Source: Nitrososphaerota archaeon
GTDB lineage: Archaea > Thermoproteota > Nitrososphaeria > Conexivisphaerales > UBA164
DNA length: 64,000 bases
Direction of reading: 5' to 3'
Assembly (NCBI GenBank): GCA_029786595.1
Contig: JAFLXO010000003.1
Span: 4,990 to 68,989, forward strand
Made by a program: the position numbers and the translations under genes. This document shows positions 2,613 through 61,706 of this stretch, in pieces; positions within the stretch are counted from its first letter, which is position 1, and each line of letters starts with the position of its first letter. The notes below the pieces were generated by a model. The model did not search any database, was not told the origin of the DNA, and saw only the letters and a list, made by a program, of their open reading frames with translations.

Positions 2613-3515
2613 TTAGGTGGCAGGGTCAGGCGATACTAACCCTGCCAGTTCTAGTGATTTGAACCTGTTCCTGATGGTCACTTCTGTTATTTCAGCCGCT
2701 ACCGCTATGTCCTTCTGAGTGCGCCCGGCCGCGAATTTCAGACATGCGACATATAAGGCGGCCCCCGCTAGGCCCATCGGCGCCTTTCCAGGCTGGATGC
2801 CCGCGTCAGCAGCCCGTTTCAATATGCTGTATGCTTCACGTTTTATAGGTTCTGATAGGTCTGCCTTTGACGCTATCCTCGGAATGTATTCCTGGGGCGG
2901 GGGCACAGGCATCGTTAGGTCCAGGTCTCTTAAGAGCAGCCTGTAGCACCTGCCGATGTCTTTCTTCTTCATCGTGGATACGGCTGCCAGATCCTTCAAT
3001 GTCTTTGGGACTCCCAGACCTCTACAGGCCGCATAAAGGGAAGCTAGGACCATACCGGTTATAGACCGGCCGCGGACCATGTTCTTCTCGAGCGCCTTCC
3101 TGTAGATGTATGCAGCACGCTCCCTGACTGCCTGGGGCACCGTTATTTTTTCAGCATACATCTTCAGCTCTTCCATGGCCTGCTTGAGGTTCCTGTCTTC
3201 TGGCTCCAGCGCCTGGCTCCGTGCGTCCCACATCCTTAGCCGTCTCATTGCCGCCCTGTCCAGGACGCTAGCTCCACCAGCGTCTTTGTCCCGGCTGTCA
3301 ACGGTCGTAGGGAGCCCCATGCCCGGTTTTGTTATTGATATTTCAGGCCCATTCTGAGTCGAAGCTGAGAATTCTTTGACATCATACACTATATGCTCGG
3401 TGGCGCACATACCGCAATTGGAGCAAACTCGTTCGCCTGTTTCACTATCTGTGATTATCGGGCCACCATTGCATTTGGGACATTTTCCACTGTTTAGCTG
3501 ATATTGCCTATTCAT
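2613..3515 (-). CDS. tfb: transcription initiation factor B (TFB/TFIIB homolog)
   Basis: 300-aa ORF with the canonical archaeal TFB layout. It has an N-terminal zinc ribbon (CPKCNGGPIITDSETGERVCSNCG), two cyclin-like repeats and a C-terminal HTH (TQKDIAVAAEITEVTIRNRFKSL). Confidence 0.9.
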   Translation of the reverse strand: MNRQYQLNSGKCPKCNGGPIITDSETGERVCSNCGMCATEHIVYDVKEFSASTQNGPEISITKPGMGLPTTVDSRDKDAGGASVLDRAAMRRLRMWDARSQALEPEDRNLKQAMEELKMYAEKITVPQAVRERAAYIYRKALEKNMVRGRSITGMVLASLYAACRGLGVPKTLKDLAAVSTMKKKDIGRCYRLLLRDLDLTMPVPPPQEYIPRIASKADLSEPIKREAYSILKRAADAGIQPGKAPMGLAGAALYVACLKFAAGRTQKDIAVAAEITEVTIRNRFKSLELAGLVSPDPAT

Positions 3516-31659: not shown

Positions 31660-32544
31660 CTACTTGCTGTCTCGCGCTCCGACAACTTTAGTGTTGAGAA
31701 GGGTGCCTGGTCTGAGGGTATCGTTATACAGCCGGAACATGTCACGGGGAATCGCGACCCTGTGTTCTGCGGCTTCAAGATGGAGGTGCTTCGCAATGAC
31801 CGGCATGGCTATCTTTGTATCTAACCAGCCTGACTTACCGTGCGCGGCGATTACTTCGTCGTAGGCATGCTGGAGAGACCGGGTTATACGTTCCATGTCC
31901 ATCATAGGCAACGCCGGACCAGCCGGTTTGTCCTTTATAGGGACTTTCGAGACGTCAATTACAACCCGCTGCTTGAACATCACCGTCTTGGGGTCGCCGT
32001 ATGTCTTGCAGACCACCCCCTCATAATGGTTTTCATTGCACCAGGTCATCATCTCAGAGAGCATGGTCCCTATCTCATCTATGGAGTTCGGCGTAAACCT
32101 TCTGAGGCACTGGACAAGACGTATCTTGTATGCACTTGACAGGGACGTTAGTTTGTCATAGTCGAACCAACGGTATGTATTGCCGTCTATTATGTCAAAG
32201 AGGTGCCATTCTGGGACCGTTTTGACTTCTAGCTCTATCTTTGTAGGCCCACGGCCAGAAAGGAGCTCCCCGAACGCGTTTACACCTGGGTAGTCTTTAA
32301 GCAACCCAACGATCCCGGCGTAATCCTGGCTGGCCTTCATCCGCTTTTCGATGTCTTCTGGAGCGCGGGCCTGATGGTGGCTGCCTATGCATGGGACCCC
32401 GTTGTCCGTGTAATTAGAAACGTTCGAGCCGTCTCTTTTAACGGTCACTACCATTTCTCTGCCTATCAGCAACTCTTTATATTCTACCCGTCTCAAGCTC
32501 TCTAAGTCCGGATACTTTATGAACGGCATGTCATCCACCTCCAT
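31660..32544 (-). CDS. ATP-dependent RNA ligase-like nucleotidyltransferase
   Basis: Ordered motifs are present: I VKRDGSN, III AFGELL, IIIa HLFDII, IV EGVVCKT, V VMFKQRV. Confidence 0.6.
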   Translation of the reverse strand: MEVDDMPFIKYPDLESLRRVEYKELLIGREMVVTVKRDGSNVSNYTDNGVPCIGSHHQARAPEDIEKRMKASQDYAGIVGLLKDYPGVNAFGELLSGRGPTKIELEVKTVPEWHLFDIIDGNTYRWFDYDKLTSLSSAYKIRLVQCLRRFTPNSIDEIGTMLSEMMTWCNENHYEGVVCKTYGDPKTVMFKQRVVIDVSKVPIKDKPAGPALPMMDMERITRSLQHAYDEVIAAHGKSGWLDTKIAMPVIAKHLHLEAAEHRVAIPRDMFRLYNDTLRPGTLLNTKVVGARDSK

Positions 32545-45345: not shown

Positions 45346-46980
45346 TCATACCAGCCCGGCTTGCTGCTGTTGCTTCTTAAGTAGATCTTGGAGAACGAGT
45401 TTGCCCGCTTCTTCTGGCCTGATGGCGAACATATAGACCCCTTTGTTATTGAACTTCATAATCTGCTCTTTCAAAGAACTCCTGCTGGGGTCTTCGGTGA
45501 CCAGACTTATGACCACCCGGTTTTGTTTTGCCAGGCTGAATATCTGGGTACTCGCTTGTTCTGCTTCACTCACGGACCCGTCAGTGATTATGAGGATGAA
45601 AGATTCTGCCGGGGTTAGTTTTTCGACCTCATTTAACGCAGAAGTGATGACCGTGTTACCGCCGGTCTTGCTCCTGAGCTCAGAGATGTGTGCAAGCGTT
45701 GAGATAGCCCGGGACCCGACCCCCACCCAGTCCTTCGAATTCTTTTCAGTGGTCGCCGCGCGGCTCCCGAAGTAAATCAAAGACGCTGGGATTCTGTTCT
45801 TTTTGGCGTATGCGAGGCTCCTTACCGCCGTTATCGTCTCCCAGTAAAGGATCGACCTGTCTTTGAAGAAGGTGTCTGTAGAAGTCGACACGTCGATGAC
45901 CGCTATGAACGATTTGAACCCGAACGACTGGTTCTCCTGTTTGATATACCTGAAGACGCTTGTGTACTTCTTCTTCCACTTGGTGGGCTCGTACCTGTTT
46001 TGCGCGACACTGATTGGGTTTAGCCTGGAGACGTCTCCGCCGAGCCACCGTTTGTTAAGCTTCTGGTATATCGGCATCTGTGAACTGGAGCCTTCCAGGA
46101 TGTTGAACGGGAGTATCGAGTCCCATATGAGCTGCCTGGTCATATCCTTGGATATGTCTGCGATGGCGTCGTCTGCGTTGATATCGTTGTTATTGAGCAA
46201 GTCTTTGATCTGGTCGGCGCTAAGGCCTGCCTGTATCCCGATCCCTGCCACGGCGCTACCCTGAGATGTGGGAGTTGCCTGGCCTCTGCCGCTTCCACAC
46301 GCCCCTTCCTGAGACCCTGACTGTATTAAGGAATTGAGGTTCTTAGCAGCATCGACGATCAAATCGATGTTTTTTTCGACCTTGCAGGCTTCTTGCTCCT
46401 TTATGAGCCTGTAGACGTCACTGACAAGGGTCCTAAATGCTGGAGAGGACCTGATACTGCCATCCATATACGTCTTAGGTACCTTTACCCCCATTGTTTC
46501 GGAATAGACCATCTGCAATATATGGAACCCTGAACCTGGCGTGATTTTGCCGTTCTTGACGATCCAGTCTTCCTGTGCGCTACGCATGGCGAACCCTTTG
46601 CTGTCGAGGACACTGTCAATGACGGCGTCTGCGATGATGTTCTCCAGTTCATGGGCTTTGCCGTTCGGCACCCTCAGCTCTGCCATGATCCTGGCCTCGA
46701 TGCGCTTGCCTTCTAAGAAAGAGCTAGGCAGCCCATCTATCGACATGTGCTCGTGCTCATGGCCCATATGTGCCCGTAGGTGCTCGGGTTTGAAGCTGTT
46801 CCAGGTCGGTGGGATGTAGATGGTCATATCAGCATACGACGATGAGAACGTGGTCGCCGTCCTGTCTAATTTTACTGTGACGCCCTGAGGTGGAGGAGGG
46901 AATAAATTCCTCCTTACCTCTAGAGCTACATCAATCAATTCCTTAGGCGCTGGTTCTGGTTTTTGAGCCTGTGTGCGCAT
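45346..46980 (-). CDS. VWA-domain protein with N-terminal zincin-like (HExxH) domain, MoxR partner
   Basis: 544 aa. The N-terminus has HMGHEHEHMS (HExxH). The C-terminal VWA-like region has IAVIDVSTSTD (a degenerate DxSxS MIDAS). It lies immediately downstream of the MoxR-like ATPase. Confidence 0.6.
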   Translation of the reverse strand: MRTQAQKPEPAPKELIDVALEVRRNLFPPPPQGVTVKLDRTATTFSSSYADMTIYIPPTWNSFKPEHLRAHMGHEHEHMSIDGLPSSFLEGKRIEARIMAELRVPNGKAHELENIIADAVIDSVLDSKGFAMRSAQEDWIVKNGKITPGSGFHILQMVYSETMGVKVPKTYMDGSIRSSPAFRTLVSDVYRLIKEQEACKVEKNIDLIVDAAKNLNSLIQSGSQEGACGSGRGQATPTSQGSAVAGIGIQAGLSADQIKDLLNNNDINADDAIADISKDMTRQLIWDSILPFNILEGSSSQMPIYQKLNKRWLGGDVSRLNPISVAQNRYEPTKWKKKYTSVFRYIKQENQSFGFKSFIAVIDVSTSTDTFFKDRSILYWETITAVRSLAYAKKNRIPASLIYFGSRAATTEKNSKDWVGVGSRAISTLAHISELRSKTGGNTVITSALNEVEKLTPAESFILIITDGSVSEAEQASTQIFSLAKQNRVVISLVTEDPSRSSLKEQIMKFNNKGVYMFAIRPEEAGKLVLQDLLKKQQQQAGLV

Positions 46981-46986
46981 TATTTG

Positions 46987-48594
46987 CTACCTCCCTGCGG
47001 TCTTGTCGGTTAACGCTGATATGGCACCTGAAAAGTCAATCTGTGGGTTGATCTGGTCCAGGACCGTCATGTCGCCTTTCTTCCTGGCCGTCTCTTTTAT
47101 CATGTCGATGGCCTCGTCCAGAATAGACCTGATTATGAGCTGGTCGATATATTGGTTCCGGAGTTTCATGGCCTCGCCGATGTCTTTGGTGACCCAGACG
47201 TTTCTGATCGTCTTGAAGTCCTTGGTGAGCAATTTCGCCTGCTCCACGTATTCCTTAACAAGCGCAGCGGTTGCCTTATATTGGTCACCGTATTTTATGA
47301 GGAAATCGGTGCTGTTCCAGAGCACCCTGTGGCTCAGAGACATGATTAGAGCTGGCTCTAGTTCGGGTGTCGACGCGACCTGCCGCTTGTTGATTAGCGC
47401 CAAGATCTTCAGAGCCTCAGTGGCGACTATTATAGGCCTTACCTTTGTGATGTTGCCCTTTGAGCATGGGAACGACTTATACGCGCATAAGTCGCAGTCC
47501 TTTGTCACCATGAACGGGTCGAACGACTCCATGATCCGGTTCTGCTTGGTGGGGGTATAATAGCATCGCGACAGATGTGACACCAGCCCTATAAGGAACG
47601 TCTCGAGGCCGTCGTCGATTTTGACCGTCTTGACAGCCTGCCTTGCCTTGTAGATGATTTCGATCGGCACTGGTTTGATGTTCCCCTTGAGCCGCTCTAA
47701 CTTTTGTATGATTTCCTTAATCTCTTGCACTGAAGGCGCGGCTGCCATGGTCGAAAACGCGTATCTGTCGAACGTGGCGGCGTCTGTCAGCGCGACGTTG
47801 CTCTGGAAGTGTTCGTTTAATGGGTTCGTCGCAAGTATGATGGTGAGCGGCTTGTACTCGACGCGCCCGATGGCGGTATCGTAATACCCCTCATTGAGTA
47901 TCCTGTGGATTTGCGCCAGGAGCATTGGGCCCTTGAACGCTTCGTCCAGGATTGCCAGATCAGCGCCTAGCATCCTGCCCTTCTTCTCTACATGAGGTGG
48001 TTTGCGGCCTAACATTATCGGATGGTCTATTACGGTCCCGAGTATGTCCTGTGGCTCATCCAGGTTGGTCAGGGTCTTGATATAGACAGTTATGGGGACG
48101 TCCTTTACAGGCCCCAGGCTGGCCGATTTGGGGTGTTTTAGAACATCTATTTCTACTTTGACCCCGAGTATGGTCCCAAATTCGGTGTAGTTGACATCCA
48201 CCCCGTCGACCAGGTTCTTGCTCAGCGCGTCAGCGTCCACACCGATCTTAGCTGCGATTTCACCGACGTATTTCAGCAGCTCCCTCTCTGGTATGTAACC
48301 GGACGCTTCAGCCTTTGTGGTGAAATCCTTTTCCAGAGTAACCACAGGCTTGTTGAATAAAGAGCCTATGAACTCTGCTATCGAGGTCTTGAAAACCCCT
48401 GGCGGGCCCTGAATAAGGACCGGTTTCCCGGCCAGGGTCCCCACCAAGATTGTGTTGGCCATCTGCCATTGCGAATACCCCCGATACACGTTGGTGATGA
48501 TACTGAATATCTGGTTCAGCATCACAGAAGTTTGTTCGAACTCCGTGATCTGCTGTGTCGCTTCTGTAGTAGTTACCATTTTCTTACCTCCCAA
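46987..48594 (-). CDS. MoxR-like AAA+ ATPase
   Basis: Walker A is LIQGPPGVFKTSIAE, Walker B is LAILDEAFKG and sensor-1-like is IILATNPLNE, followed by a long helical C-terminal extension. Confidence 0.7.
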   Translation of the reverse strand: MGGKKMVTTTEATQQITEFEQTSVMLNQIFSIITNVYRGYSQWQMANTILVGTLAGKPVLIQGPPGVFKTSIAEFIGSLFNKPVVTLEKDFTTKAEASGYIPERELLKYVGEIAAKIGVDADALSKNLVDGVDVNYTEFGTILGVKVEIDVLKHPKSASLGPVKDVPITVYIKTLTNLDEPQDILGTVIDHPIMLGRKPPHVEKKGRMLGADLAILDEAFKGPMLLAQIHRILNEGYYDTAIGRVEYKPLTIILATNPLNEHFQSNVALTDAATFDRYAFSTMAAAPSVQEIKEIIQKLERLKGNIKPVPIEIIYKARQAVKTVKIDDGLETFLIGLVSHLSRCYYTPTKQNRIMESFDPFMVTKDCDLCAYKSFPCSKGNITKVRPIIVATEALKILALINKRQVASTPELEPALIMSLSHRVLWNSTDFLIKYGDQYKATAALVKEYVEQAKLLTKDFKTIRNVWVTKDIGEAMKLRNQYIDQLIIRSILDEAIDMIKETARKKGDMTVLDQINPQIDFSGAISALTDKTAGR

Positions 48595-52993: not shown

Positions 52994-53289
52994 CTCTGTT
53001 CAATGGCACGGAACACCACATACTGCACAAAGTCCTTGAACGGTAATGGGACATTGTTGGCAGCTTTGATTGCCGCCACAGGGTATTCTTTTGCCAGTGC
53101 CCGGATGCGCTTTATCGCCGGTTCTGGCTCGGTGTCGAGCGTGTTCACCAATGTTATAAACTCTTTGATCATTTGGTGGACGCTCGGCTTCTCTATCTCT
53201 TTGTTACACAAAGAGCAGATGTATGTTATGGCGACGTTGCTTTTGTTGTCCTTTGCCCTACACATCTTTCCGCCGCACTCACAAATCAA
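52990..53289 (-). CDS. small zinc-ribbon protein
   Basis: 99 aa with CECGGKMC...CSLCNKE. It has 4-nt overlaps on both sides. Confidence 0.5.
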   Translation of the reverse strand: MICECGGKMCRAKDNKSNVAITYICSLCNKEIEKPSVHQMIKEFITLVNTLDTEPEPAIKRIRALAKEYPVAAIKAANNVPLPFKDFVQYVVFRAIEQR

Positions 53290-54662
53290 TTCTCGTCACT
53301 CCTGTCTTTCTGGGTATGGGAAACGCTCCCACGGCCGCCGTATACTATGGATGAAATCAGGTGGCCATAGCCTTTCTCAGGGACCATCTTGCCCCTGTGT
53401 TCGTTGTAGTATACAGGGGGTGCTTCAAAGTACAGATACTTTGGTACTTCAAGATATATGGTCTTTGGATCAATTTTGCGCTCCAGAAGCTGGGCAGCTA
53501 TAACCGCCATTATGCGTTCGCGTATCTGTTTGTTGAGGGTCCTTGTTATGTCTCTCTCAGCGTCTTCTGGAGATATCTTGAACTTTGAAATGTAGTATGT
53601 CTTTAACGTGTCGATTGGCACCCCGTTGAGCCCCATCTCGTCTATCACATTGGCCCTTATCATCTCTGTTTGCTCCTTGTCAAGGAACGTCGCCTTGTCC
53701 AGAACGTCTTCTGGCGAGAACGACGTCTGTTCAAATACATGCTTTACAGCGTAGTCTATGATGAACTGGAGGTTCCCGACCATCCTTTCAAAACTAAGGA
53801 CATCAGCCCGTTTTATCTTGATATACTGATCTGGCCCTTTATAGACGAGCCCCTCTTCTGTCCACCCTGACATCGCATCTTCTGGGGCGGTGGTGCTGAC
53901 CTTCCATCCTCTTACAGGTTCTACCAGCCCGTTGACCGGGACCATTCTTTTCATGGTCTCATAATCGAGGAATTCATAACCTCTGTCTGTCTCGACCAGG
54001 ATGTCGAAGACTTTGAATTTGGCGTCAAACGGGTAGAGCATCCCGTATTTCATCTCTTTGTCGACGGCGATGGGGTTGTATTTTGTCAGGAATTCTGAAG
54101 AGACGAGTTTCACATCCCTGGCGTCAAAGACCGGGCCGAGCGCCGCCTTTAGCCCTGGTATCACGGAAGACACCACGACGTTGCCCATCTCGTCTATCAT
54201 CCCGTTAGACCTGCCTTCATTGAATACTGGGAGATACCGCTGTTTGAAAGACGCGAACGTGGTTACTGGTATCCCTGGGACCGTTTGGTTTCCAAGGACA
54301 AGGTTGTAATTGATGTCATTGTAGAACCTTGCAGGCTCTATAGTCCCTCTGGTCCTATGTATGAGGCCGCGCTGGAGGGCCAACATCATTATCTGGGTCC
54401 CGTTGACCTTTTCTGTCAAGAACCCTCCAGGTGACAGCGCTTCAGAACGCAGGTTGTCTATATGTGGGTAGTTCAGGAGCCACTCAGATGTCGTGACGTC
54501 CATAGCGAGGCCAAGATATTTGTTTGTTTTGACACGCTGCATCAAGTACTTCCCACCATCTGAGTTGCTGAAGACCAGCTTGTGGCCTCCGTACTCGAGC
54601 TTATGCGACGACTTTAACAGTTCCTTTATATCGTCGAGCTCTTTATGTGTATAAAATAACAT
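53286..54662 (-). CDS. large RNA ligase-like nucleotidyltransferase (Rnl2-type motif I)
   Basis: Ordered motifs are present: I TEKVNGTQ (EKxxGxN-like), III SSEF, IIIa VFDIL, IV EEGLVYKG, V YIKIKR. Confidence 0.45.
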   Translation of the reverse strand: MLFYTHKELDDIKELLKSSHKLEYGGHKLVFSNSDGGKYLMQRVKTNKYLGLAMDVTTSEWLLNYPHIDNLRSEALSPGGFLTEKVNGTQIMMLALQRGLIHRTRGTIEPARFYNDINYNLVLGNQTVPGIPVTTFASFKQRYLPVFNEGRSNGMIDEMGNVVVSSVIPGLKAALGPVFDARDVKLVSSEFLTKYNPIAVDKEMKYGMLYPFDAKFKVFDILVETDRGYEFLDYETMKRMVPVNGLVEPVRGWKVSTTAPEDAMSGWTEEGLVYKGPDQYIKIKRADVLSFERMVGNLQFIIDYAVKHVFEQTSFSPEDVLDKATFLDKEQTEMIRANVIDEMGLNGVPIDTLKTYYISKFKISPEDAERDITRTLNKQIRERIMAVIAAQLLERKIDPKTIYLEVPKYLYFEAPPVYYNEHRGKMVPEKGYGHLISSIVYGGRGSVSHTQKDRSDEN

Positions 54663-54673
54663 GTTCTTGCCTC

Positions 54674-55405
54674 CTATACTTCAAATGCCGTGGCGACGTT
54701 GATGGGGACGCCCATCTCCAGGGCCAGCACCAATGATTTCTTTATTGAATTAACCATCTTGACGGGCTGTGAGTTTATGACAAATGTGGTATGTTGCTTG
54801 GTGGCGTTAATGACGTTGGATTTGAAGGCCTGTCTAGTATGTTGGAGCAAAGAAAAGAGCGCCGAAGGGTAGCTTATCCTCACATACGGCATCTCTATGG
54901 TATCTATATTTGCCAGTGTCTTCAACCCGAATATAACGGTATAGTTATGGAAAGGGAATGGCTGAACTGTCCGCACCCTGATGTCTACCGTTATATCCTT
55001 ACCAACATGGACAATATTCTTACCGGCCTCCAACTTATGAAACATATCAATGGTTTTATCGCTTAGTTCTAAGTACGCCTTTAACCTGTCGCGCCTGGCT
55101 GGGTTTCCGCATAACCTTTCAAGCACCGATATGTCTACAGTTGTTATCGCTTTCAGTATGGAAGTGTGGGCCATAGGATAGGGGGTATACCGTGAGAACC
55201 TGCCATAGACGGCGCATACTAGGCTTTCTATGATTGTTTTACGGTAATCTGACGTCACAAAGAGTTCTTCTTTGTCTGAAGACTTGATTAAGATGCCACT
55301 ATGTTCGATGCTTATTGTACCTTCTTCTGTCTTTGGCATTTTTAGTATACCGGCAGCGATGCGGCGGCCTGCCAGATATGCAGTGCTTACGACGTCGTTT
55401 CTCAT
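54674..55405 (-). CDS. AL-tail family member (distinct body)
   Basis: 243 aa. Tail is SLVLALEMGVPINVATAFEV. Confidence 0.55.
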   Translation of the reverse strand: MRNDVVSTAYLAGRRIAAGILKMPKTEEGTISIEHSGILIKSSDKEELFVTSDYRKTIIESLVCAVYGRFSRYTPYPMAHTSILKAITTVDISVLERLCGNPARRDRLKAYLELSDKTIDMFHKLEAGKNIVHVGKDITVDIRVRTVQPFPFHNYTVIFGLKTLANIDTIEMPYVRISYPSALFSLLQHTRQAFKSNVINATKQHTTFVINSQPVKMVNSIKKSLVLALEMGVPINVATAFEV

Positions 55406-55425: not shown

Positions 55426-56679
55426 TTAAACCGAACCGCCTGGTGTGAGTTTCATGTCTAGGAAGAAGCTCTGGAACCCTGGTAACTTTGCCGGGGTCCT
55501 TGTGTAGCCTATAGCCGCAAATCCTGCCCTCTTTGCTATGCTCATGGCGGTTTCTTTTGTCGTTATGCTGTCGAGATCGAAGACGTCGCCGTCTGTTAGG
55601 ATGACGACACCGTCTCCTGGCCGCATCTGCTTGTCGATGACCTCCAAGGCTGGACCGACTTCAGTGCCTCCGCCACCCTTCATCCTCTTAGCGATTCTTG
55701 AGGCCACCTCAGAGGGGCTGTCTGCCGTCATCAACTCGTACGCTTTCGCGTCGAAGGCCAGGACTATCACGGTCCCGTTTCTTGCATGGTTCTTGACCAG
55801 CCCGATTTCGTATTTCAAGGTCGTTTCATCGATGCTGCCAGACGTGTCGACGAGGTTGAACAGGTCATACCTGTATCCATAGTCGCCGGCAAGCTCGTCG
55901 TTCCTTCTGTTGATGTATGCAAAACTGCTGTCGTGGTGCTCATGTAGGTCTATAGTGGATTTGAGGAAGAAGGTCCATGGTGGTTTGACTTCGATGACCT
56001 CTGATATAGCCCGGTCCATCTCAGCAGGCATGTTCCCAGCTTGCTGCCCCAACGTCCTCATCCTTGAAAGGATGCGCTTGGTCTCTTCAGCGTCTCGTTT
56101 GCTGAAGATGTCTCCACCGTCTTCGCCATCCTCAATCTCTTGGTAGTTGTCGAGTGCCGCGATCAAGTCGTCTTCTGTCATATTCTCGAGGACCTTGTCT
56201 GACACATCCTCTAAAAGACGGGCGATTTCTTCTACTGACATCTGCTCGAGGTCCCCTATATCGGTCTTGGTCACTTCTGCGATGGCATCCATCGTAATCT
56301 CGTTTTTACCAAGGTCGATTTTGCCAGCGTTGACTTCCCTATCCAGGGAACCACGGATGATGCTATTGACCTTCGCACAGGCGGCTATGTTCCAGGCGTT
56401 CTTGGTAAACCCCCGGCCTCTGTAATAATGCCCGAAAGCAAGGTGGAGGCAGGCGTGGAATACGCGGCCTCTTTTGATGTTGAAGTCGGCCCTATTCCAT
56501 GCTGACCCGTTGACTACCATGCGGCCGTTGTTGTCTACTGAAACCAGCCCAGCCGTTTCCTTGCTTTCGATTATCTTTGCATATTTCAACGGGATGAGCA
56601 GGTATGGTGCTTTCTTGTTGAAATAGACCCTGATGTCGATGAAATCTGCCCGTATTGTTTCTTCAGTCATAATGCGCAC
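55426..56679 (-). CDS. VWA-domain protein with N-terminal putative metallopeptidase-like domain (DUF2201-like), MoxR partner
   Basis: 417 aa. The N-terminus has FHACLHLAFGHYYRG. The VWA MIDAS is LFNLVDTSGSIDE. It ends ..KLTPGGSV. Confidence 0.6.
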   Translation of the reverse strand: MRIMTEETIRADFIDIRVYFNKKAPYLLIPLKYAKIIESKETAGLVSVDNNGRMVVNGSAWNRADFNIKRGRVFHACLHLAFGHYYRGRGFTKNAWNIAACAKVNSIIRGSLDREVNAGKIDLGKNEITMDAIAEVTKTDIGDLEQMSVEEIARLLEDVSDKVLENMTEDDLIAALDNYQEIEDGEDGGDIFSKRDAEETKRILSRMRTLGQQAGNMPAEMDRAISEVIEVKPPWTFFLKSTIDLHEHHDSSFAYINRRNDELAGDYGYRYDLFNLVDTSGSIDETTLKYEIGLVKNHARNGTVIVLAFDAKAYELMTADSPSEVASRIAKRMKGGGGTEVGPALEVIDKQMRPGDGVVILTDGDVFDLDSITTKETAMSIAKRAGFAAIGYTRTPAKLPGFQSFFLDMKLTPGGSV

Positions 56680-56736
56680 CTCCTGTTAAAAAAACATGTA
56701 GGGCAAGACACTGAGCTTGTCTTGCCCCTCATCGGC

Positions 56737-58080
56737 TTACTTCACCCGTATCAGACTGGCACCTATTGAGGTGATTAGCTCAGTCACCCTCCTGGCGCTT
56801 ACAGACTTTTCGGGGTCAAATTTTGGAGACGACTTAGAGATGAATCCGTCTACATACTTGTAGAACCGGAACGTCATTTCTTGCTTAGTAGATGGCAGCA
56901 TGGAAAGTATCACGGCCATATATTCCTTGCCGCCAATCTGACCCTTACCGTCGTTCATGGTAGCTACGGCAGCCAGGATTTTGAACACGTCAGGCCATGC
57001 CTTCTCGACTACCACCTTGTTGGCGATTGACAACGCTGCGAGGCACTTCTGTTCTAGGTCGAAACTGGCGATCTTTGTCGGATCTGCTGCTATCTCTTCA
57101 AAGGTCGGTGGGGTGTGTTCTGAAAACTGGACCAGCTCAGATCCGGTCTGACCGAGCTTGCCTTCTGCGAGCTCGACCTTAAAGACCTCATCTGCCGGGC
57201 TGCTCCCGAGGGCGTTCCAGGCTACAGCGATGTACTCCATGCCTCTGAGAGTCGCAAACATGCGCATCTCATAGTCTTCGTTCTCTTTCACAGCGTCGGC
57301 AAAAATCTTGTCCTCCTTCCAGACGTAGAAGGCGAAGACGCGCTTGTCCCAGTTGTCGCCATGCATCCTGTCCATGTATGTGGCCCAGGACCTAGGGTTC
57401 GGCCGGTCGACCTGAATCTTGACACATCTGTCAAGCATCGGCCTCGGAAGTGGCCTTGCGATAGCCGAGAACCTTGGAGGGTTGCACGCGGCTATGACGA
57501 AGCTGTCAGGGTGCAACGGAGTGCTCCCTATCTTATGCTCGTCTAGTGTACGCATGATCGCTGCGAACATGTTGTCTCTGCGTTCGTTGGTGATTTCATC
57601 TATGAAGAGGATGGTCGGGATGGTGCTTGCCAGTTTGGCTAGCGCCAGGGGCACGAGCCTAGTGAAGTCCGCCTCTTCGTTGACCCGTGGGTAGCCGTTG
57701 AGCTCTACAGGGTCGTGCAGGGCAGGGCGGAGGTGCGCGAAGATGAAGTTCTCATCTGGCTTCTCAAGGAGGTTCTTCATCACGTCCGGGTCGTCCTTGA
57801 TCTTTTCCCAGTCTCTGAATATCCTAGAGGTCTTTAGCGGGGCATGGCATTTCGGACACTCCTGAGGATCGTTTGAATAGACATGCTCCGGCTTTGTCCC
57901 ACAATTTGCGCATGGGGCTGGGAATTTCTTCACAATGTCGGTAGCCCAAAGCCAGATCGTGGTGGTTTTGCCTACACCTGTGTCGCTTTCTAGCAGCGGG
58001 GTTATATAGAAGTGCGTCTTACTTCTAAGTTCAAACAACCTAGTCAGATAGGTAGGTACAGTGTTTATATCCATATTCAT
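56737..58080 (-). CDS. MoxR/AAA_5-like AAA+ ATPase with inserted zinc ribbon
   Basis: Walker A is ESDTGVGKTTTI, Walker B is ILFIDEITNE and sensor-1-like is FVIAACNPP. There is an inserted CANCG...CPKCH. Its start forms an ATGA overlap with the upstream gene. Confidence 0.7.
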   Translation of the reverse strand: MNMDINTVPTYLTRLFELRSKTHFYITPLLESDTGVGKTTTIWLWATDIVKKFPAPCANCGTKPEHVYSNDPQECPKCHAPLKTSRIFRDWEKIKDDPDVMKNLLEKPDENFIFAHLRPALHDPVELNGYPRVNEEADFTRLVPLALAKLASTIPTILFIDEITNERRDNMFAAIMRTLDEHKIGSTPLHPDSFVIAACNPPRFSAIARPLPRPMLDRCVKIQVDRPNPRSWATYMDRMHGDNWDKRVFAFYVWKEDKIFADAVKENEDYEMRMFATLRGMEYIAVAWNALGSSPADEVFKVELAEGKLGQTGSELVQFSEHTPPTFEEIAADPTKIASFDLEQKCLAALSIANKVVVEKAWPDVFKILAAVATMNDGKGQIGGKEYMAVILSMLPSTKQEMTFRFYKYVDGFISKSSPKFDPEKSVSARRVTELITSIGASLIRVK

Positions 58081-58550
58081 ATTCCTCCTGTTTTGTCGTC
58101 ATTCGGCAACAGACGGTAAAATTCTTCTTTTATGAGTCGCTTCAGCAACCTGGCGTTATAGACGAGATGCATCGATATCTCAGCAAACTCGTCTTCAAGG
58201 CTTATAGGCCGCACCTTAAAGGCAACCACGGGGGTAGGTGGTAGCGAGAACTCATAGAACTCGGCACTGCCTTCTACAACATTGGGGTCCTTCTCTAGCA
58301 GTTTCGAATACTCCCCCATCTCAGCCAACGAAATGAACCCATCGAGAGGAGACAGCCCCATGAGGTTCCTGTTGACCTTAATGAACGGTTTTGCTGCTAT
58401 CTCCATGGGTTCATATCTGTTCCATGACAGCCCGATCTCCTTTGCAGCTATTAACCGTTCCAGTAACTGACCAAGCATCCGCATCTCCAGCGTCGTCTGA
58501 GACTTTCGTATCGCGTTTTTGGTCATATCAATATACTCTTGATATTGCAT
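58077..58550 (-). CDS. hypothetical protein with C-terminal ..KTGGI tail (candidate modifier or substrate)
   Basis: 157 aa. It ends in LLPNDDKTGG-I, verified codon by codon. It sits between the E2-like genes and the AAA+ gene. Confidence 0.55.
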   Translation of the reverse strand: MQYQEYIDMTKNAIRKSQTTLEMRMLGQLLERLIAAKEIGLSWNRYEPMEIAAKPFIKVNRNLMGLSPLDGFISLAEMGEYSKLLEKDPNVVEGSAEFYEFSLPPTPVVAFKVRPISLEDEFAEISMHLVYNARLLKRLIKEEFYRLLPNDDKTGGI

Positions 58551-58562
58551 TTTACCCCCTTC

Positions 58563-59387
58563 TTAATTCTTTACCTCTATAAAAAGGTCATTATCCTTGA
58601 GGGTGTTAAGTGTTATCCGGACTTTGGGTTGGGTCTTGTTCACTACTGACTCTGGTGATACAGTCTGCGGTTTGAGAGGTGTTATAGTCAAATTGTGTCT
58701 GGTCACGACATGTTTGAACAGCCAGTCTGGGAGGCCCCTGATGTCCATTCCAGGATACTGAGGTGCCAGAGCCGCCACGATGACGTCTTTGGCGCTATTG
58801 ACGGTCAGCTTTTTGTTGGCCGTTGCCTGAACTATGGCGTTTTCAAGTTCTTGCAGTTCTGGCTTCTTAAGATGATACCATGGGGTGCCTTTCCATTTGA
58901 ACGGCCCAATGTTTTGACCTGGGATCTGTAAGGAACTTAACTGGTGATACCTCTGACTGTTAAATCTATCATTGCTGTCAGTGTTAGCTAGCACGGCCTC
59001 GACAGGCTCAAAATTATTAGCTAACCTTTTTGCCGCATTGTTTAGGTTAGATAGGCTGATCATCTTGCGAATCATGCCATAACCAGCCCCGACGCACAAC
59101 TCCCCACCTGAAATATGTCTATGGTTGAAGGTAGGTGCTACTCTGATGGATGATGAATATGAATGTGGAGCCCCATGAAATACCAAAGTTTCCTCATCAC
59201 GTTTTTCATAAACCATGGTGACAGTTATACGGGGTACCACAGCAGCCTTAGCCGATGAAGTTACGATAAAGTTTCTGATTTCTTTGCGTATATTTACGTT
59301 TCCACTGCCATACAGGGAAGCCGTGATGTTCGGGACGGTGTTTTTGAAGATGCCATTGAGGCCTGTTATCAAGTCGGCATATGTCAT
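58563..59387 (-). CDS. E2 (UBC)-like protein, long paralog
   Basis: 274 aa. FNHRHISGGELCVGAGYG resembles the E2 H-x-N...G-x-x-C active-site flap. The downstream FEPVEAVLANTDSNDR is shared with 59400..59951. Confidence 0.45.
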   Translation of the reverse strand: MTYADLITGLNGIFKNTVPNITASLYGSGNVNIRKEIRNFIVTSSAKAAVVPRITVTMVYEKRDEETLVFHGAPHSYSSSIRVAPTFNHRHISGGELCVGAGYGMIRKMISLSNLNNAAKRLANNFEPVEAVLANTDSNDRFNSQRYHQLSSLQIPGQNIGPFKWKGTPWYHLKKPELQELENAIVQATANKKLTVNSAKDVIVAALAPQYPGMDIRGLPDWLFKHVVTRHNLTITPLKPQTVSPESVVNKTQPKVRITLNTLKDNDLFIEVKN

Positions 59388-59399
59388 CTATAGCACCTC

Positions 59400-59951
59400 C
59401 TAATGTCTAACAGCTATATCAACGCCCGGGGCGACCTTCTTGAGGTTCATCTGGTTGCTGACGCGGGGCCTTCTTGTCTTACCAAGACGTATCCCAGCCC
59501 CGGCTACGATCGAGTCTGGTTTTTCTGTGTTTGACAGTATCGCTTCAACGACTTCGAAGTTACTGATTATTATGTCCGGGGCGCCGGCGTCTATAGGTAT
59601 GCGCCTTTTCAATAAATCAGCGCTTTGACCTAGGCAGATGCCTTCAGTGAAGACGTCGGCGTGCCAGATCCTAGAAGTCGGTGACACTTTGATTCCTCTG
59701 CTAACACTTTTGTTTTTATCAAGTCTCAGTATTAAGACATTACCAGCCGTCAGATGGTGCTGCATCGTTATCGTGAACGGATTCAGCCTATATGCGTACT
59801 TTGTCCCGATTGTGATGAAATCTGACTCTTTTTTTGTGATTGTAAGATATGATGTTTGATTTGAGACAGTGACCGAGAACGGCCTGTCTTTATATCGTGC
59901 ATTTAAACCGCTTTCTAAAGGATGCTCCGTTCCGATCACCTCCAATACCAC
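59400..59951 (-). CDS. E2 (UBC)-like protein, short paralog
   Basis: 183 aa. RIWHADVFTEGICLGQSADLL closely mimics the E2 HPN-x4-G-x-ICL-x-x-L signature. FEVVEAILSNTEKPDS is shared with 58563..59387. Confidence 0.5.
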   Translation of the reverse strand: MVLEVIGTEHPLESGLNARYKDRPFSVTVSNQTSYLTITKKESDFITIGTKYAYRLNPFTITMQHHLTAGNVLILRLDKNKSVSRGIKVSPTSRIWHADVFTEGICLGQSADLLKRRIPIDAGAPDIIISNFEVVEAILSNTEKPDSIVAGAGIRLGKTRRPRVSNQMNLKKVAPGVDIAVRH

Positions 59952-59952
59952 G

Positions 59953-60579
59953 CTATAACGAGTTGTTAATCATCTTTGGGTGCTTCTCATTGCGTAACAT
60001 CGCCAGGATAATCTGTGTTGTCATCGAGGCGCAGACCATATGTGTCGCCTCTAGCCGCACCTTGGGTGCAACAAAACAGCTGCCTCTCCTGGCTGGGTCG
60101 TTACCTTCATTGAACGCGCTGTACCCGTCGATATCACTGGTAAGGATTGTATACTGGTTTTCTTCAACACGTGCGTCCACAAAATTGGTGAACGATTTGC
60201 TTATGACGTCTCTTGTTGTAAGGTTGTCAACCGTGAGGACACCAATGGCGCTGTTTTTCGACCCAATCCCGAGGTTTGTTATATCCCCGAGCTCAACTAT
60301 CTCAGCGTCATGTGGTATCACCTTCACGGCACTGTCAGCATACCGTTTGGCGAGCGCTTCGATCTTCAGTTTGCCTACATCAGTTTTGTCATAATCAGCG
60401 TAAAGAAGGTTTTTGGGTTCGACCATGTCAAAGTCTACAATGTGTATCTCTTTGACTTTCGCGCGAACCAGCTCGCTGTCAAGCTTGGTCAAGAACCACA
60501 GTATCCAGCTCCCGACCCCACCGACACCGAAAACAGCTATTTTTTTAGACAAAGTCAAACACCTCTTTCTCTGATCCAA
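59953..60579 (-). CDS. minimal E1-like adenylating enzyme (ThiF/MoeB/HesA family)
   Basis: 208 aa. It has Rossmann IAVFGVGGVGSW, VDFDMVEPKNLLY (D-x-D-x-V-x3-NL), TVDNLTTRDVI (DN..tR) and a downstream Cys in RRGSCFVAP. Confidence 0.7.
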   Translation of the reverse strand: MDQRKRCLTLSKKIAVFGVGGVGSWILWFLTKLDSELVRAKVKEIHIVDFDMVEPKNLLYADYDKTDVGKLKIEALAKRYADSAVKVIPHDAEIVELGDITNLGIGSKNSAIGVLTVDNLTTRDVISKSFTNFVDARVEENQYTILTSDIDGYSAFNEGNDPARRGSCFVAPKVRLEATHMVCASMTTQIILAMLRNEKHPKMINNSL

Positions 60580-61306
60580 ACGTTATATCGGGTTGTGATT
60601 CCTGGTCGAGTTTGTCCTCGATAACCGATAGAAGATCTTTGATTTGATACAAAATGCCCCTCACTGATTTGTTCTCAGCGTCAAGAGTATTTCCATCACC
60701 AGGGAGGAATTCAGAAACGTCATTATGCCCGTCTGAACTAACAACGTTGACAGCCGATGGATTGAATGGGAGGACTACCTTCGCCTCTGTCAATGTTATA
60801 CCCCCAGATCGGTCCTTGATTGCTACTTTGCCGTCGAATCGTTTGGGGTTATGTCTTGATATGGTCAGACTCGCCACTGGGAGCTTGAGAATGTTTGCTA
60901 TATCCATTGTGGTGTCAGTGTCGGTGCCAGAATGAAAGGCCCCGAAGTCGCAGTGGCTGTGGCCCCAGCCTACCTGGGTTTTTTGGGTGTTTTTATAGTA
61001 GAGGAACACGTCATCTACACCATCCAGTGGCACCTGTTCCCAGTGAGCCCCAGATACGCGTTGCGAGGGGAGGTAAATGTCGGTGACATGCACCTGCCGG
61101 GTCCCATGACGGTAGCCAGACATCGCGAACCCAAACTCTGTTTTGAACGTTGAGAGGTAATACATCATCTTACTCAACGCCTTGGCTGAGATGATGATTT
61201 TAGACTTACCGTCCTGAGGAACCTCTCCGTACAGGTCATTTATCTGAAAGTTGTCAGGTGTGTCAAAGTATTTCTCTTTTTTACCCAATAATAACCCCTC
61301 CATCAT
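60545..61306 (-). CDS. JAB/MPN (JAMM) metallopeptidase, copy 2
   Basis: JAMM signature GWGHSHCDFGAFHSGTD. It is a paralog of 24005..24571 with an extra C-terminal region of about 60 aa. Confidence 0.75.
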   Translation of the reverse strand: MMEGLLLGKKEKYFDTPDNFQINDLYGEVPQDGKSKIIISAKALSKMMYYLSTFKTEFGFAMSGYRHGTRQVHVTDIYLPSQRVSGAHWEQVPLDGVDDVFLYYKNTQKTQVGWGHSHCDFGAFHSGTDTDTTMDIANILKLPVASLTISRHNPKRFDGKVAIKDRSGGITLTEAKVVLPFNPSAVNVVSSDGHNDVSEFLPGDGNTLDAENKSVRGILYQIKDLLSVIEDKLDQESQPDITFGSEKEVFDFV

Positions 61307-61706
61307 TACAAATCTTACATATCATCATAATGTCATCAGTGCTCGCAAGTGTTACATGCTGCTCCTGGAGCATACGTTTAGCAGCCGCTATATGGGGACA
61401 TATGTTTAGTCCGTATTCTTCTTGTTCTGGATAATCCTGGCCTTGGGCCTGGTCGTCTATGGTGATTTCAATCTTATCATGCGCTCGTAGATCAATTTCA
61501 TGGTCTTTACACCAGGCGATTATTACGGGCGTGGCGTCGTTAGTTGACCTCCCTTCCCGGCTCCATCTATACCCTATCGCAGTATTGGGACATGGGACCA
61601 TAGCGTGACCAAGATCAGTTTTAGCCCTGGCTACCCCTGAGCACATCAGTTTTTGCTCATGGATCAAATTCAATATCAGTTTGTCTAGTTGCTCCATCTT
61701 AATCAC
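61281..61706 (-). CDS. Cys-containing hypothetical protein, first gene of the cassette
   Basis: 141 aa. It ends ..CKICNDGGVIIG. Its 3' end overlaps the JAB start. Confidence 0.5.
   Translation of the reverse strand: MIKMEQLDKLILNLIHEQKLMCSGVARAKTDLGHAMVPCPNTAIGYRWSREGRSTNDATPVIIAWCKDHEIDLRAHDKIEITIDDQAQGQDYPEQEEYGLNICPHIAAAKRMLQEQHVTLASTDDIMMICKICNDGGVIIG

Follow-up and report, generated by a model that had tools for sequence, protein, structure and literature searches.

In this study, we analysed a stretch of 64,000 nucleotides (nt) from a Nitrososphaerota archaeon (GenBank assembly GCA_029786595.1, contig JAFLXO010000003.1, positions 4,990 to 68,989 of the forward strand; hereafter the window), with the focus on two neighbouring genes that encode a MoxR-like AAA+ ATPase (AAA+) and a zincin-like protein with a VWA domain (VWA). 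They lie directly downstream of genes for a JAB/MPN+ metallopeptidase (JAB), a small ThiF-type E1-like adenylyltransferase (E1) and four further proteins (p141, p183, p274 and p157), which together are referred to as the E1/JAB set (Table 1). The two genes very probably represent the MoxR-like/VWA chaperone pair of mobile elements that is typified by gp24/gp25 of phage N4, and we assign a probability of roughly 0.45 to the reading that this pair is functionally coupled to the E1/JAB set. Such a coupling is plausible because two protein-handling modules abut within a neighbourhood of DNA and RNA metabolism, because a zinc ribbon in the ATPase and the exchange of HExxH for HAxxH in its partner occur exactly in the clade that has the linkage, because the block of genes was preserved while its flanks changed, and because MoxR-vWA proteins and ubiquitin-like proteins (Ubl) have been found together in bacteria (Kaur et al. 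2020). We infer that the block may be co-transcribed and that the pair may be physically linked to p157, E1 and JAB.

The identity of the pair was established by comparison with relatives of the window (loci labelled L001–L035 and proteins P0001/P0002). Three or four lineages form the clade considered here, grouped as the window with L014–L016, L007/L008, and L001 with L013, while the outgroup consists of N4-like phages (L005, L006), loci from IMG/VR (L017–L023), metagenomic loci (L027, L028), and archaeal metagenome-assembled genomes (MAGs; L029–L035). The AAA+ protein matched phrog_1297 ('ATPase', E = 1e−32, residues 27–400) as well as N4 gp24-like phage ATPases (tblastn), and an exhaustive HMMER search recovered 682 homologues at E ≤ 1e−3, the best of them beyond the clade at 38% identity. 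Within an alignment of 25 family members, Pfam AAA_5 was matched by 18 and AAA_3 by two (E ≤ 0.01), and the window protein itself reached no AAA threshold in Pfam (sub-threshold matches to AAA and AAA_16 only), hence it can fairly be called MoxR-like only in a broad sense, as an AAA_5-like ATPase that has a VWA partner, and is not a curated member of AAA_3 or AAA_5. The ATPase core is retained in this alignment, with G35, G37 and K38 of the GK[ST] motif (Walker A, SDTGVGKT in the window) and the sensor-1 residue N200 invariant, and with the Asp of Walker B (ILFIDE) and R168/R218 kept in at least 90% of the sequences; a change of the first Walker A Gly to Ser was seen in the window clade only. 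When the family profile was compared with structures in the PDB, midasin was the top match (E = 5e−12) and CbbQ followed further down with a weaker score. By its family, the protein may be a hexameric ATPase with chaperone activity.

The partner protein matched both Pfam DUF2201_N (1.8e−10) and DUF2201 (6e−8) above their gathering thresholds, in addition to phrog_1314 (3e−27), and its 414-aa form is identical to the deposited MDG7036062.1. These matches bear out the first-pass annotation of this DNA, which had been made from the letters and their open reading frames (ORFs) and had described a MoxR-type AAA+ and a VWA/peptidase-like pair with an intact DTSGS metal-ion-dependent adhesion site (MIDAS). 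Beyond this motif, the distal residues of the site are present as well, and D275, S277, S279, T336 (GGGT) and D360 (LTDG) are invariant across six homologues.

Two features set the pair of the window clade apart from its relatives. The first is the insertion of about 30 residues that was already noticed in the ATPase as a zinc ribbon (C57-x2-C60 ... C75-x2-C78; weak matches to Pfam DZR and Zn_ribbon_8). It is present in the window and in P0002 and is gapped out in 23/23 homologues beyond the clade, i.e., it is clade-specific. The second is the degenerate zincin motif, HACLHLAFGH, which is common to the window, L001 and the near-identical L014; the corresponding motif reads HE(L/I/C/M)xH...H in L018, L017, L005 and L006 and HEMLH in L027, and the Glu was kept in every outgroup examined.

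Table 1. Positions of the features discussed, in window coordinates.
Feature	Position	Strand	Remarks
p141, Cys/His-rich, unclassified	61281..61706	-	first gene of the conserved block
JAB/MPN+ metallopeptidase	60545..61288	-	full JAMM motif
Small ThiF-type E1-like adenylyltransferase	59953..60552	-	199 aa
p183, Cys-containing, E2-like candidate	59400..59951	-	paralogue of p274
p274, Cys-containing, E2-like candidate	58563..59387	-	paralogue of p183
p157, unclassified fold	58077..58550	-	157 aa, ends ...NDDKTGGI
MoxR-like AAA+ ATPase	56737..58080	-	447 aa (445 aa from ATG 58074); N4 gp24-like family
Zinc-ribbon insertion in AAA+	57826..57918	-	aa 55-85, CANCG...CPKCH, between Walker A and the remaining ATPase core
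Conserved RNA hairpin	56700..56728	-	11 bp, 8-12 nt past the AAA+ stop; followed by U7 (T7) at 56688-56694
Zincin-like (DUF2201_N) + VWA (DUF2201) cofactor	55426..56670	-	414 aa; N4 gp25-like family
Degenerate zincin motif HACLHLAFGH	56428..56457	-	three His kept; catalytic Glu of HExxH changed to Ala
MIDAS motif DTSGS of the VWA domain	55834..55848	-	intact
p243, unclassified protein	54674..55405	-	20-nt gap after the VWA gene
RNA-ligase-like gene	53286-54662		weak match; missing in lineage L001
bpMoxR/AAA_5-like ATPase of second pair	46987-48594	-	535 aa
VWA protein of second pair	45346-46980	-	544 aa, HEHEH motif, weak phrog_1314 match
RNA-ligase-like gene	31660-32544		above Pfam RNA_ligase threshold

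The upstream genes had been described as part of an E1/E2/JAB cassette, of which the E1 and the JAB component stood. E1 matched Pfam ThiF with 44.7 bits (threshold 28.1), the PADLOC models for Cap2 E1-E2 proteins down to 8e−10, and BilD; its GVGGVGS, DFD and Cys159 are invariant. In JAB, E51 and the complete JAMM motif HSHCDFGAFHSGTD (HxHx7SxxD) are invariant in the three lineages, and the protein matched the PADLOC JAB model of CBASS (cyclic oligonucleotide-based antiphage signalling systems) at 1e−6, with a Pfam Prok-JAB score of 19.4 bits that is below the threshold of 25. In p141, ten residues are invariant over 110 residues (C22, C39, C66, H69, H76, C103, H105, H117, C130, C133), and the protein may bind two zinc ions; it had no family matches in Pfam, PHROG, PADLOC or NCBIfam, and its gene is located directly downstream of a site of gene gain and loss among the lineages.

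The order p141-JAB-E1-p183-p274-p157-AAA+-VWA-p243 was kept in the three diverged lineages. Identities to the window were 85–89% for AAA+, 82% for VWA, 72–83% for p157 (in L001 and L007) and 74–77% for E1, so that p157, AAA+ and VWA are the best-conserved proteins of the block, with E1 close to p157; lower values were obtained for JAB (52–66%), p183 (59%), p274 (44–48%), p141 (55–58%), and p243 (32–45%), whose gene succeeds VWA throughout the clade (L001, L007, L014). The 4.1-kb contig L013 stops inside the p274 homologue, and over the region that it covers it is nearly identical to L001. The flanks vary, with isochorismatase, EndoVII and RNase T genes gained or lost upstream of p141 and with an RNA-ligase-like gene past p243 that is missing in L001. 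A block that stays intact while both of its flanks change, and while its less constrained proteins have drifted to 32–48% identity, is suggestive of coupling.

The alternative that has to be weighed most closely is fortuitous adjacency, by which the pair would be an autonomous assembly chaperone placed beside an unrelated E1/JAB set and any co-transcription would reflect the architecture of the genome. We take this to be a serious possibility, at somewhat less than even odds. Several observations count for it and thereby against a functional coupling. Exact or close homologues of E1 and AAA+ were found only in a tight clade: neither single proteins nor clade alignments gave close relatives of AAA+, E1 or JAB in IMG/VR, a search of GTDB genomes with the clade AAA+ alignment came back empty, and word-indexed protein searches (with AAA+, E1 and the AAA+ family alignment) returned clade members, one match to a P-loop fragment and one of the query's own sequences (on a 1.6-kb contig), with no intermediates. 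The linkage is confined to this clade, which would make it a single evolutionary event. Outside of it, no homologues of ThiF, JAB, p183/p274, p157 or p141 were detected within 10 kb of the pairs in the archaeal MAGs L029–L035 (phmmer at E < 0.01 and then at E < 10 with filters off, a JAMM regular expression, and Pfam scans of 124 neighbouring genes and of the ten genes directly beside the pairs), and no E1 or JAB genes were found near the pair in the N4-like phages L005 and L006 or in the seven IMG/VR loci L017–L023; the JAMM regular expression gave one match near the outgroup pairs, which no domain model supported. The survey of gene neighbourhoods that the first-pass annotation had proposed thus showed a linkage that recurs within one clade but in none of the outgroup pairs examined. 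No E1 or JAB gene lies within about 10 kb of any of these pairs, which means that outside the clade the pair functions in their absence, and a role in virion assembly has been proposed for its jumbo-phage counterparts (Iyer et al. 2021, PMC7824862).

The composition and the layout of the window are further points on the same side. The GC content at third codon positions (GC3) changes stepwise at the p157/AAA+ junction, from 0.44–0.57 in the six upstream genes to 0.64–0.65 in AAA+ and VWA, where it resembles that of the ligase, the exonuclease and a second MoxR/VWA pair, and this discontinuity hints at separate histories of the pair and the upstream genes. The second pair is distantly related to the first and closes the same dense run of genes 8–10 kb downstream (45346-48594, minus strand), and no Ubl genes were found beside it; the element thus holds two different MoxR/VWA pairs, about 8–10 kb apart. 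Tight spacing is common in this genome as well: 27 of the 96 same-strand junctions in the window (greedy gene call) overlap or abut, 14 by exactly 4 nt, and 50/96 (52%) are ≤ 20 nt, which means that the ATGA overlap at the start of the ATPase gene is not special here, where overlaps and tiny gaps are the rule. Against a chance neighbourhood stand the preservation of the block between changing flanks, the low likelihood that random placement would abut two protein-handling modules within a region of nucleic-acid metabolism, and the clade-specific zinc ribbon and lost Glu, which suggest that the function was altered exactly where the linkage occurs.

Functional coupling to the E1/JAB set also depends on what the remaining upstream genes encode, and here the earlier cassette was not confirmed, as neither an E2 nor a Ubl could be verified. 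The proteins p183 and p274 are paralogues (E = 1e−7 to 1e−11; 25–31% identity) that share an invariant H97-x8-C106-x-G108 and the motif NFExVEAxL, and had no matches in Pfam, PHROGs, PADLOC, NCBIfam or the PDB. Their profile gave an hhalign probability of 0.15% against three canonical E2 sequences, and the AlphaFold2 (AF2) model of p183, computed from an alignment with its window paralogue only, had a pLDDT of 32 and was unusable. None of the tests that were run supported the assignment of the two proteins as E2-like, which weighs against the coupling reading. Similarly, p157 was without matches in Pfam, PHROG, PADLOC and NCBIfam, its best sequence match in the PDB had E = 0.23, and the single-sequence AF2 model (mostly helical) was unusable at a pLDDT of 37.6. 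It carries a TGG[IV] tail in the three lineages, and the Gly-Gly codons coincide with the GGAGG that serves AAA+ as its Shine-Dalgarno sequence, which is located inside the last p157 codons in the window, in L007 and in L001. In p141, too, a near-terminal GG (NDGGVIIG*, 61286-61300) is encoded by the GGAGG that forms the Shine-Dalgarno sequence of JAB, the gene that follows (the p157 site is at 58081-58090). The GG tails of coupled genes in this element may do no more than reflect the presence of ribosome-binding sites, and this may hold for the Gly-Gly of the candidate Ubl p157, again to the detriment of the coupling reading. The latter protein could be a Ubl or a non-Ubl tag as in CBASS, and E1 could alternatively act on a host ThiS or small archaeal modifier protein (SAMP).

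The last option leads to another explanation, in which the six upstream genes would be no conjugation system at all: the ThiF protein would act on the host ThiS/SAMP as a sulfur-carrier or adenylating enzyme, or belong to a pathway that modifies peptides or nucleotides, JAB would be a processing peptidase, and the pair would mature a complex in the way of CbbQ/CbbO and NorQ/NorD. Among NCBIfam models, E1 fits ThiF sulfur-carrier adenylyltransferases best (below the cut-offs), ThiF-like proteins that were proposed to use host ThiS/SAMP have been reported from jumbo archaeal extrachromosomal elements (PMC13444090), and the maturation of metalloenzymes is the classical task of MoxR/VWA pairs, as illustrated by CbbQ among the PDB matches and by the literature on CoxD and RavA. 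Nevertheless, we regard this explanation as quite unlikely, given that E1 also fits the Cap2 and BilD models and JAB the CBASS JAB model, that the paralogues with an invariant His-x8-Cys are encoded between E1 and p157, an arrangement expected of thioester carriers, and that no ThiS/MoaD gene and no sulfurtransferase or rhodanese domain was detected in the block (Pfam).

The mode of action of the pair can be outlined from its family. The VWA domain would grip an acidic residue or a carboxylate of the client through the MIDAS, and the AAA+ ring would remodel that client. If the pair is indeed coupled to the E1/JAB set, it would provide a step of recognition and remodelling whose clients are p157 or proteins that pass through this set, with the degenerate zincin domain serving as a binding module and JAB contributing the peptidase activity. 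A complete scheme in which JAB removes the terminal residue from p157, the Gly-Gly exposed in this way is adenylated by E1, the two Cys-containing paralogues pass the thioester on to targets, and AAA+/VWA with its non-catalytic zincin reader remodels or extracts the tagged proteins is, in our estimate, unlikely. Were it true, a virus would have assembled a minimal counterpart to ubiquitin-Cdc48/proteasome or Pup-Mpa from a pair of the N4 gp24/gp25 type.

Several known systems share parts of this arrangement. A MoxR + metallopeptidase-vWA pair was reported in jumbo phages, with a role in virion assembly proposed by analogy with the Acidianus two-tailed virus (Iyer et al. 2021, Viruses 13:63). 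The N4 gp24/gp25 and jumbo-phage pairs have in common with the window the two families, their order, the intact MIDAS, and the carriage on mobile elements near genes of replication and nucleotide metabolism; the window differs from the N4 pair in the HACLH motif, the zinc ribbon, the Ser in Walker A, the adjoining E1/JAB set, and the archaeal element. In the Acidianus two-tailed virus, the MoxR protein (p618) and the VWA protein (p892) reportedly act as assembly chaperones (Scheele et al. 2011, J Virol). This is also a case of MoxR + VWA in an archaeal virus, but its VWA protein is without a zincin and has no E1/JAB neighbours (compared by description only). The same logic of two genes for an AAA+ ATPase and a VWA/MIDAS protein is found in RavA-ViaA, CbbQ-CbbO and NorQ-NorD, which belong to other subfamilies and have metabolic enzymes as clients. 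Midasin/Rea1 contacts Ytm1 and Rsa4 by way of its MIDAS domain, which binds their Ubl domains, and an AAA_5-type ATPase with a MIDAS that recognises a ubiquitin-like domain thus offers an analogy for a contact between MIDAS and tag; on the other hand, midasin is a giant eukaryotic protein of six modules, the match of the window family to it covers mostly P-loop and sensor regions, and p157 is only a candidate Ubl.

The first-pass annotation was aware of no connection of MoxR-VWA pairs to ubiquitin-like conjugation genes, but a precedent exists in the work on vWA-MoxR systems that it cites. The vWA-MoxR 'FtsH ternary' systems carry a full JAB/E1/E3/Ubl-E2 set (Kaur, Burroughs, Iyer and Aravind 2020, eLife 9:e52696, subsystem 3), and, as in the window, the genes for a MoxR ATPase and a vWA protein accompany those for JAB and E1. 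These systems are bacterial, have a double FtsH-type AAA+, a beta-propeller/ClpN-vWA, a RING E3, an EAD1-Ubl-E2 fusion and caspase-like effectors, and their vWA is unlike the zincin-fused DUF2201 type of the window. No match to FtsH/Peptidase_M41 was obtained for ten block and flank proteins (Pfam), and caspase, propeller, EAD and RING models had no matches in the block (Pfam, PADLOC, NCBIfam); membership in the FtsH-ternary class was rejected, as its defining components are absent. CBASS Cap2/Cap3 and the ISG15-like Bil systems are similar to the window in the models that fit E1 and JAB, and the C-terminus conjugated in CBASS belongs to a non-Ubl protein, a possible model for p157. In contrast to these systems, the E1 of the window is a stand-alone adenylation domain, an E2 is present only as a candidate, and there is no CD-NTase (cGAS/DncV-like nucleotidyltransferase) or other effector; an AAA+/VWA partner, in turn, is not a core component of CBASS or Bil.

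The MoxR/VWA pair as such, and the combination of MoxR-vWA with Ubl conjugation in a different, bacterial architecture, are therefore already known, while the phage-type zincin-VWA pair next to an E1/JAB set, its setting in an archaeal mobile element, and the derived features of the pair are new. A functional coupling would make this the first E1/JAB tagging system from a virus or an archaeon that is connected to a dedicated AAA+ remodeller, it would provide a testable role for the N4 gp24/gp25 family, which is widespread in phages and has no known function, and it would add an independent case from an archaeal mobile element to the combinations of a tag with an AAA+ machine (cf. ubiquitin-proteasome, Pup-Mpa, and bacterial vWA-MoxR-Ubl). 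If the adjacency is fortuitous, what is left is a new and divergent representative of a phage chaperone pair that is already known, with an inactivated peptidase motif and a zinc ribbon.

The transcriptional organisation of the block was also followed up, as the eight genes between 61706 and 55426 had been interpreted as one operon. The junction of p157 and AAA+ reads ACA GGA GGA ATA TGA, with ATG 58080-58078 overlapping the stop codon TGA 58079-58077 as described before; an alternative start, ATG 58074, is 9 nt from the GGAGG at 58088-58084 (3 nt for the first ATG) and is used in public gene calls (P0001; L014). Depending on the start, the two genes overlap by 4 nt or lie 2 nt apart, and the junction is tight in both cases. 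For the VWA gene, the likely start is ATG 56670, with AGGAGGTG located 8 nt upstream, and the GTG at 56679 lies in this Shine-Dalgarno sequence; with the start at ATG 56670, the spacer between AAA+ and VWA is 66 nt and not 57 nt as given earlier, a value that is obtained only from GTG 56679. The spacing is compatible with an operon of eight genes but is not specific to it. A dense run of about 20 genes continues from 61706 to 45346, 10 kb past the VWA gene, and 55426 is therefore no operon boundary; the spacer between AAA+ and VWA is the widest gap within this run. It also holds a terminator-like hairpin, i.e., inside the proposed operon, and both the extent of the run and the position of the hairpin weaken the coupling reading.

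This hairpin was the sole terminator-like match on the minus strand between 53 and 64 kb, and nothing comparable was found between 33 and 53 kb. It is kept in position, with different stem sequences, in the window (56688-56728), L001 (11350-11395) and L007 (13848-13890), each with a folding energy of about −20 kcal/mol and z = −4.5 to −6.6 (0/200 shuffles as stable); the three spacers were folded one by one, as RNAalifold misaligned the hairpins owing to indels. Because the stem sequences differ among the lineages, the structure appears to be selected. Together with its U-tract it resembles a terminator or an attenuator, or else an element that stabilises the 3' end or acts as a binding site, and most likely it would lower the expression of VWA relative to the ATPase and so set their ratio. 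About 350 molecules of RavA and about 90 of ViaA are present per cell (PMC3893208), a stoichiometry with which an attenuator between the AAA+ and VWA genes is compatible. In 58077-58550, where a promoter or terminator had been named as evidence against a single operon, none was found, and the strong hairpin with its T-run is instead situated between AAA+ and VWA. A scan for sigma-70 promoters gave counts in 53–64 kb equal to the shuffled expectation, the bacterial consensus being uninformative for an archaeal element. The T-rich spacer was considered as an archaeal TATA box for the VWA gene and rejected, since, at about 17–25 nt from the ATG, it would place the onset of transcription at or within the start codon, so that the conserved Shine-Dalgarno sequence would be left out.

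As for the element itself, the gene content of the window points to a part of a very large archaeal virus-like or extrachromosomal element. This reading is based on a TFIIB/TFB homologue at 2613-3515 (minus strand; Pfam TFIIB, 7e−43) and TFIIS-type zinc-ribbon genes in the relatives L007, L008 and L014, on the binning of the clade lineages as Nitrososphaerota (the deposited proteins are labelled 'MAG: Nitrososphaerota archaeon'), on the archaeal outgroups, on a relative with a contig of 430 kb, and on virus-like genes (ATP-dependent DNA ligase, EndoVII, RNase T, RNA ligases, thymidylate synthase, DHH phosphoesterase). Among the ORFs tested, none was recognised as a capsid or terminase gene. 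Every gene between 45 and 64 kb is on the minus strand, and no near-identical DNA was found among GenBank phages.

Outside the clade, the AAA+ gene is followed by an adjacent VWA gene in most loci, among them L005, L017, L018, L027, L029, L030, L031 and L033; a small ORF separates the two in L006, and in the Hadarchaeales locus L034 the VWA gene is upstream, about 0.8 kb away and with an opposite-strand gene in between. The closest outgroup pairs that could be placed are those of Bathyarchaeia, Hadarchaeales and unclassified archaeal MAGs (L029–L035) and of the short metagenome contigs L027 and L028. The pairs of L029–L033 sit among genes for a TrwB-type coupling protein, a NikA-like protein, an archaeal integrase and radical-SAM proteins, which suggests integrated conjugative or viral elements in Bathyarchaeia. 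EcP1 and Roseovarius Plymouth podovirus 1, both N4-like phages, encode a gp24-like ATPase with a gp25-like protein as its neighbour, beside helicase and DNA polymerase genes and with no Ubl genes in the vicinity. The gp25-like proteins of L005 (NC_019485.1, 12588-13808) and L006 (NC_049345.1, 7597-8829) are labelled 'HNH endonuclease' in RefSeq/PHROGs; because they align with the window protein and share phrog_1314 with it, they would be read as zincin-like + VWA proteins, and the label looks like a propagated mis-annotation.

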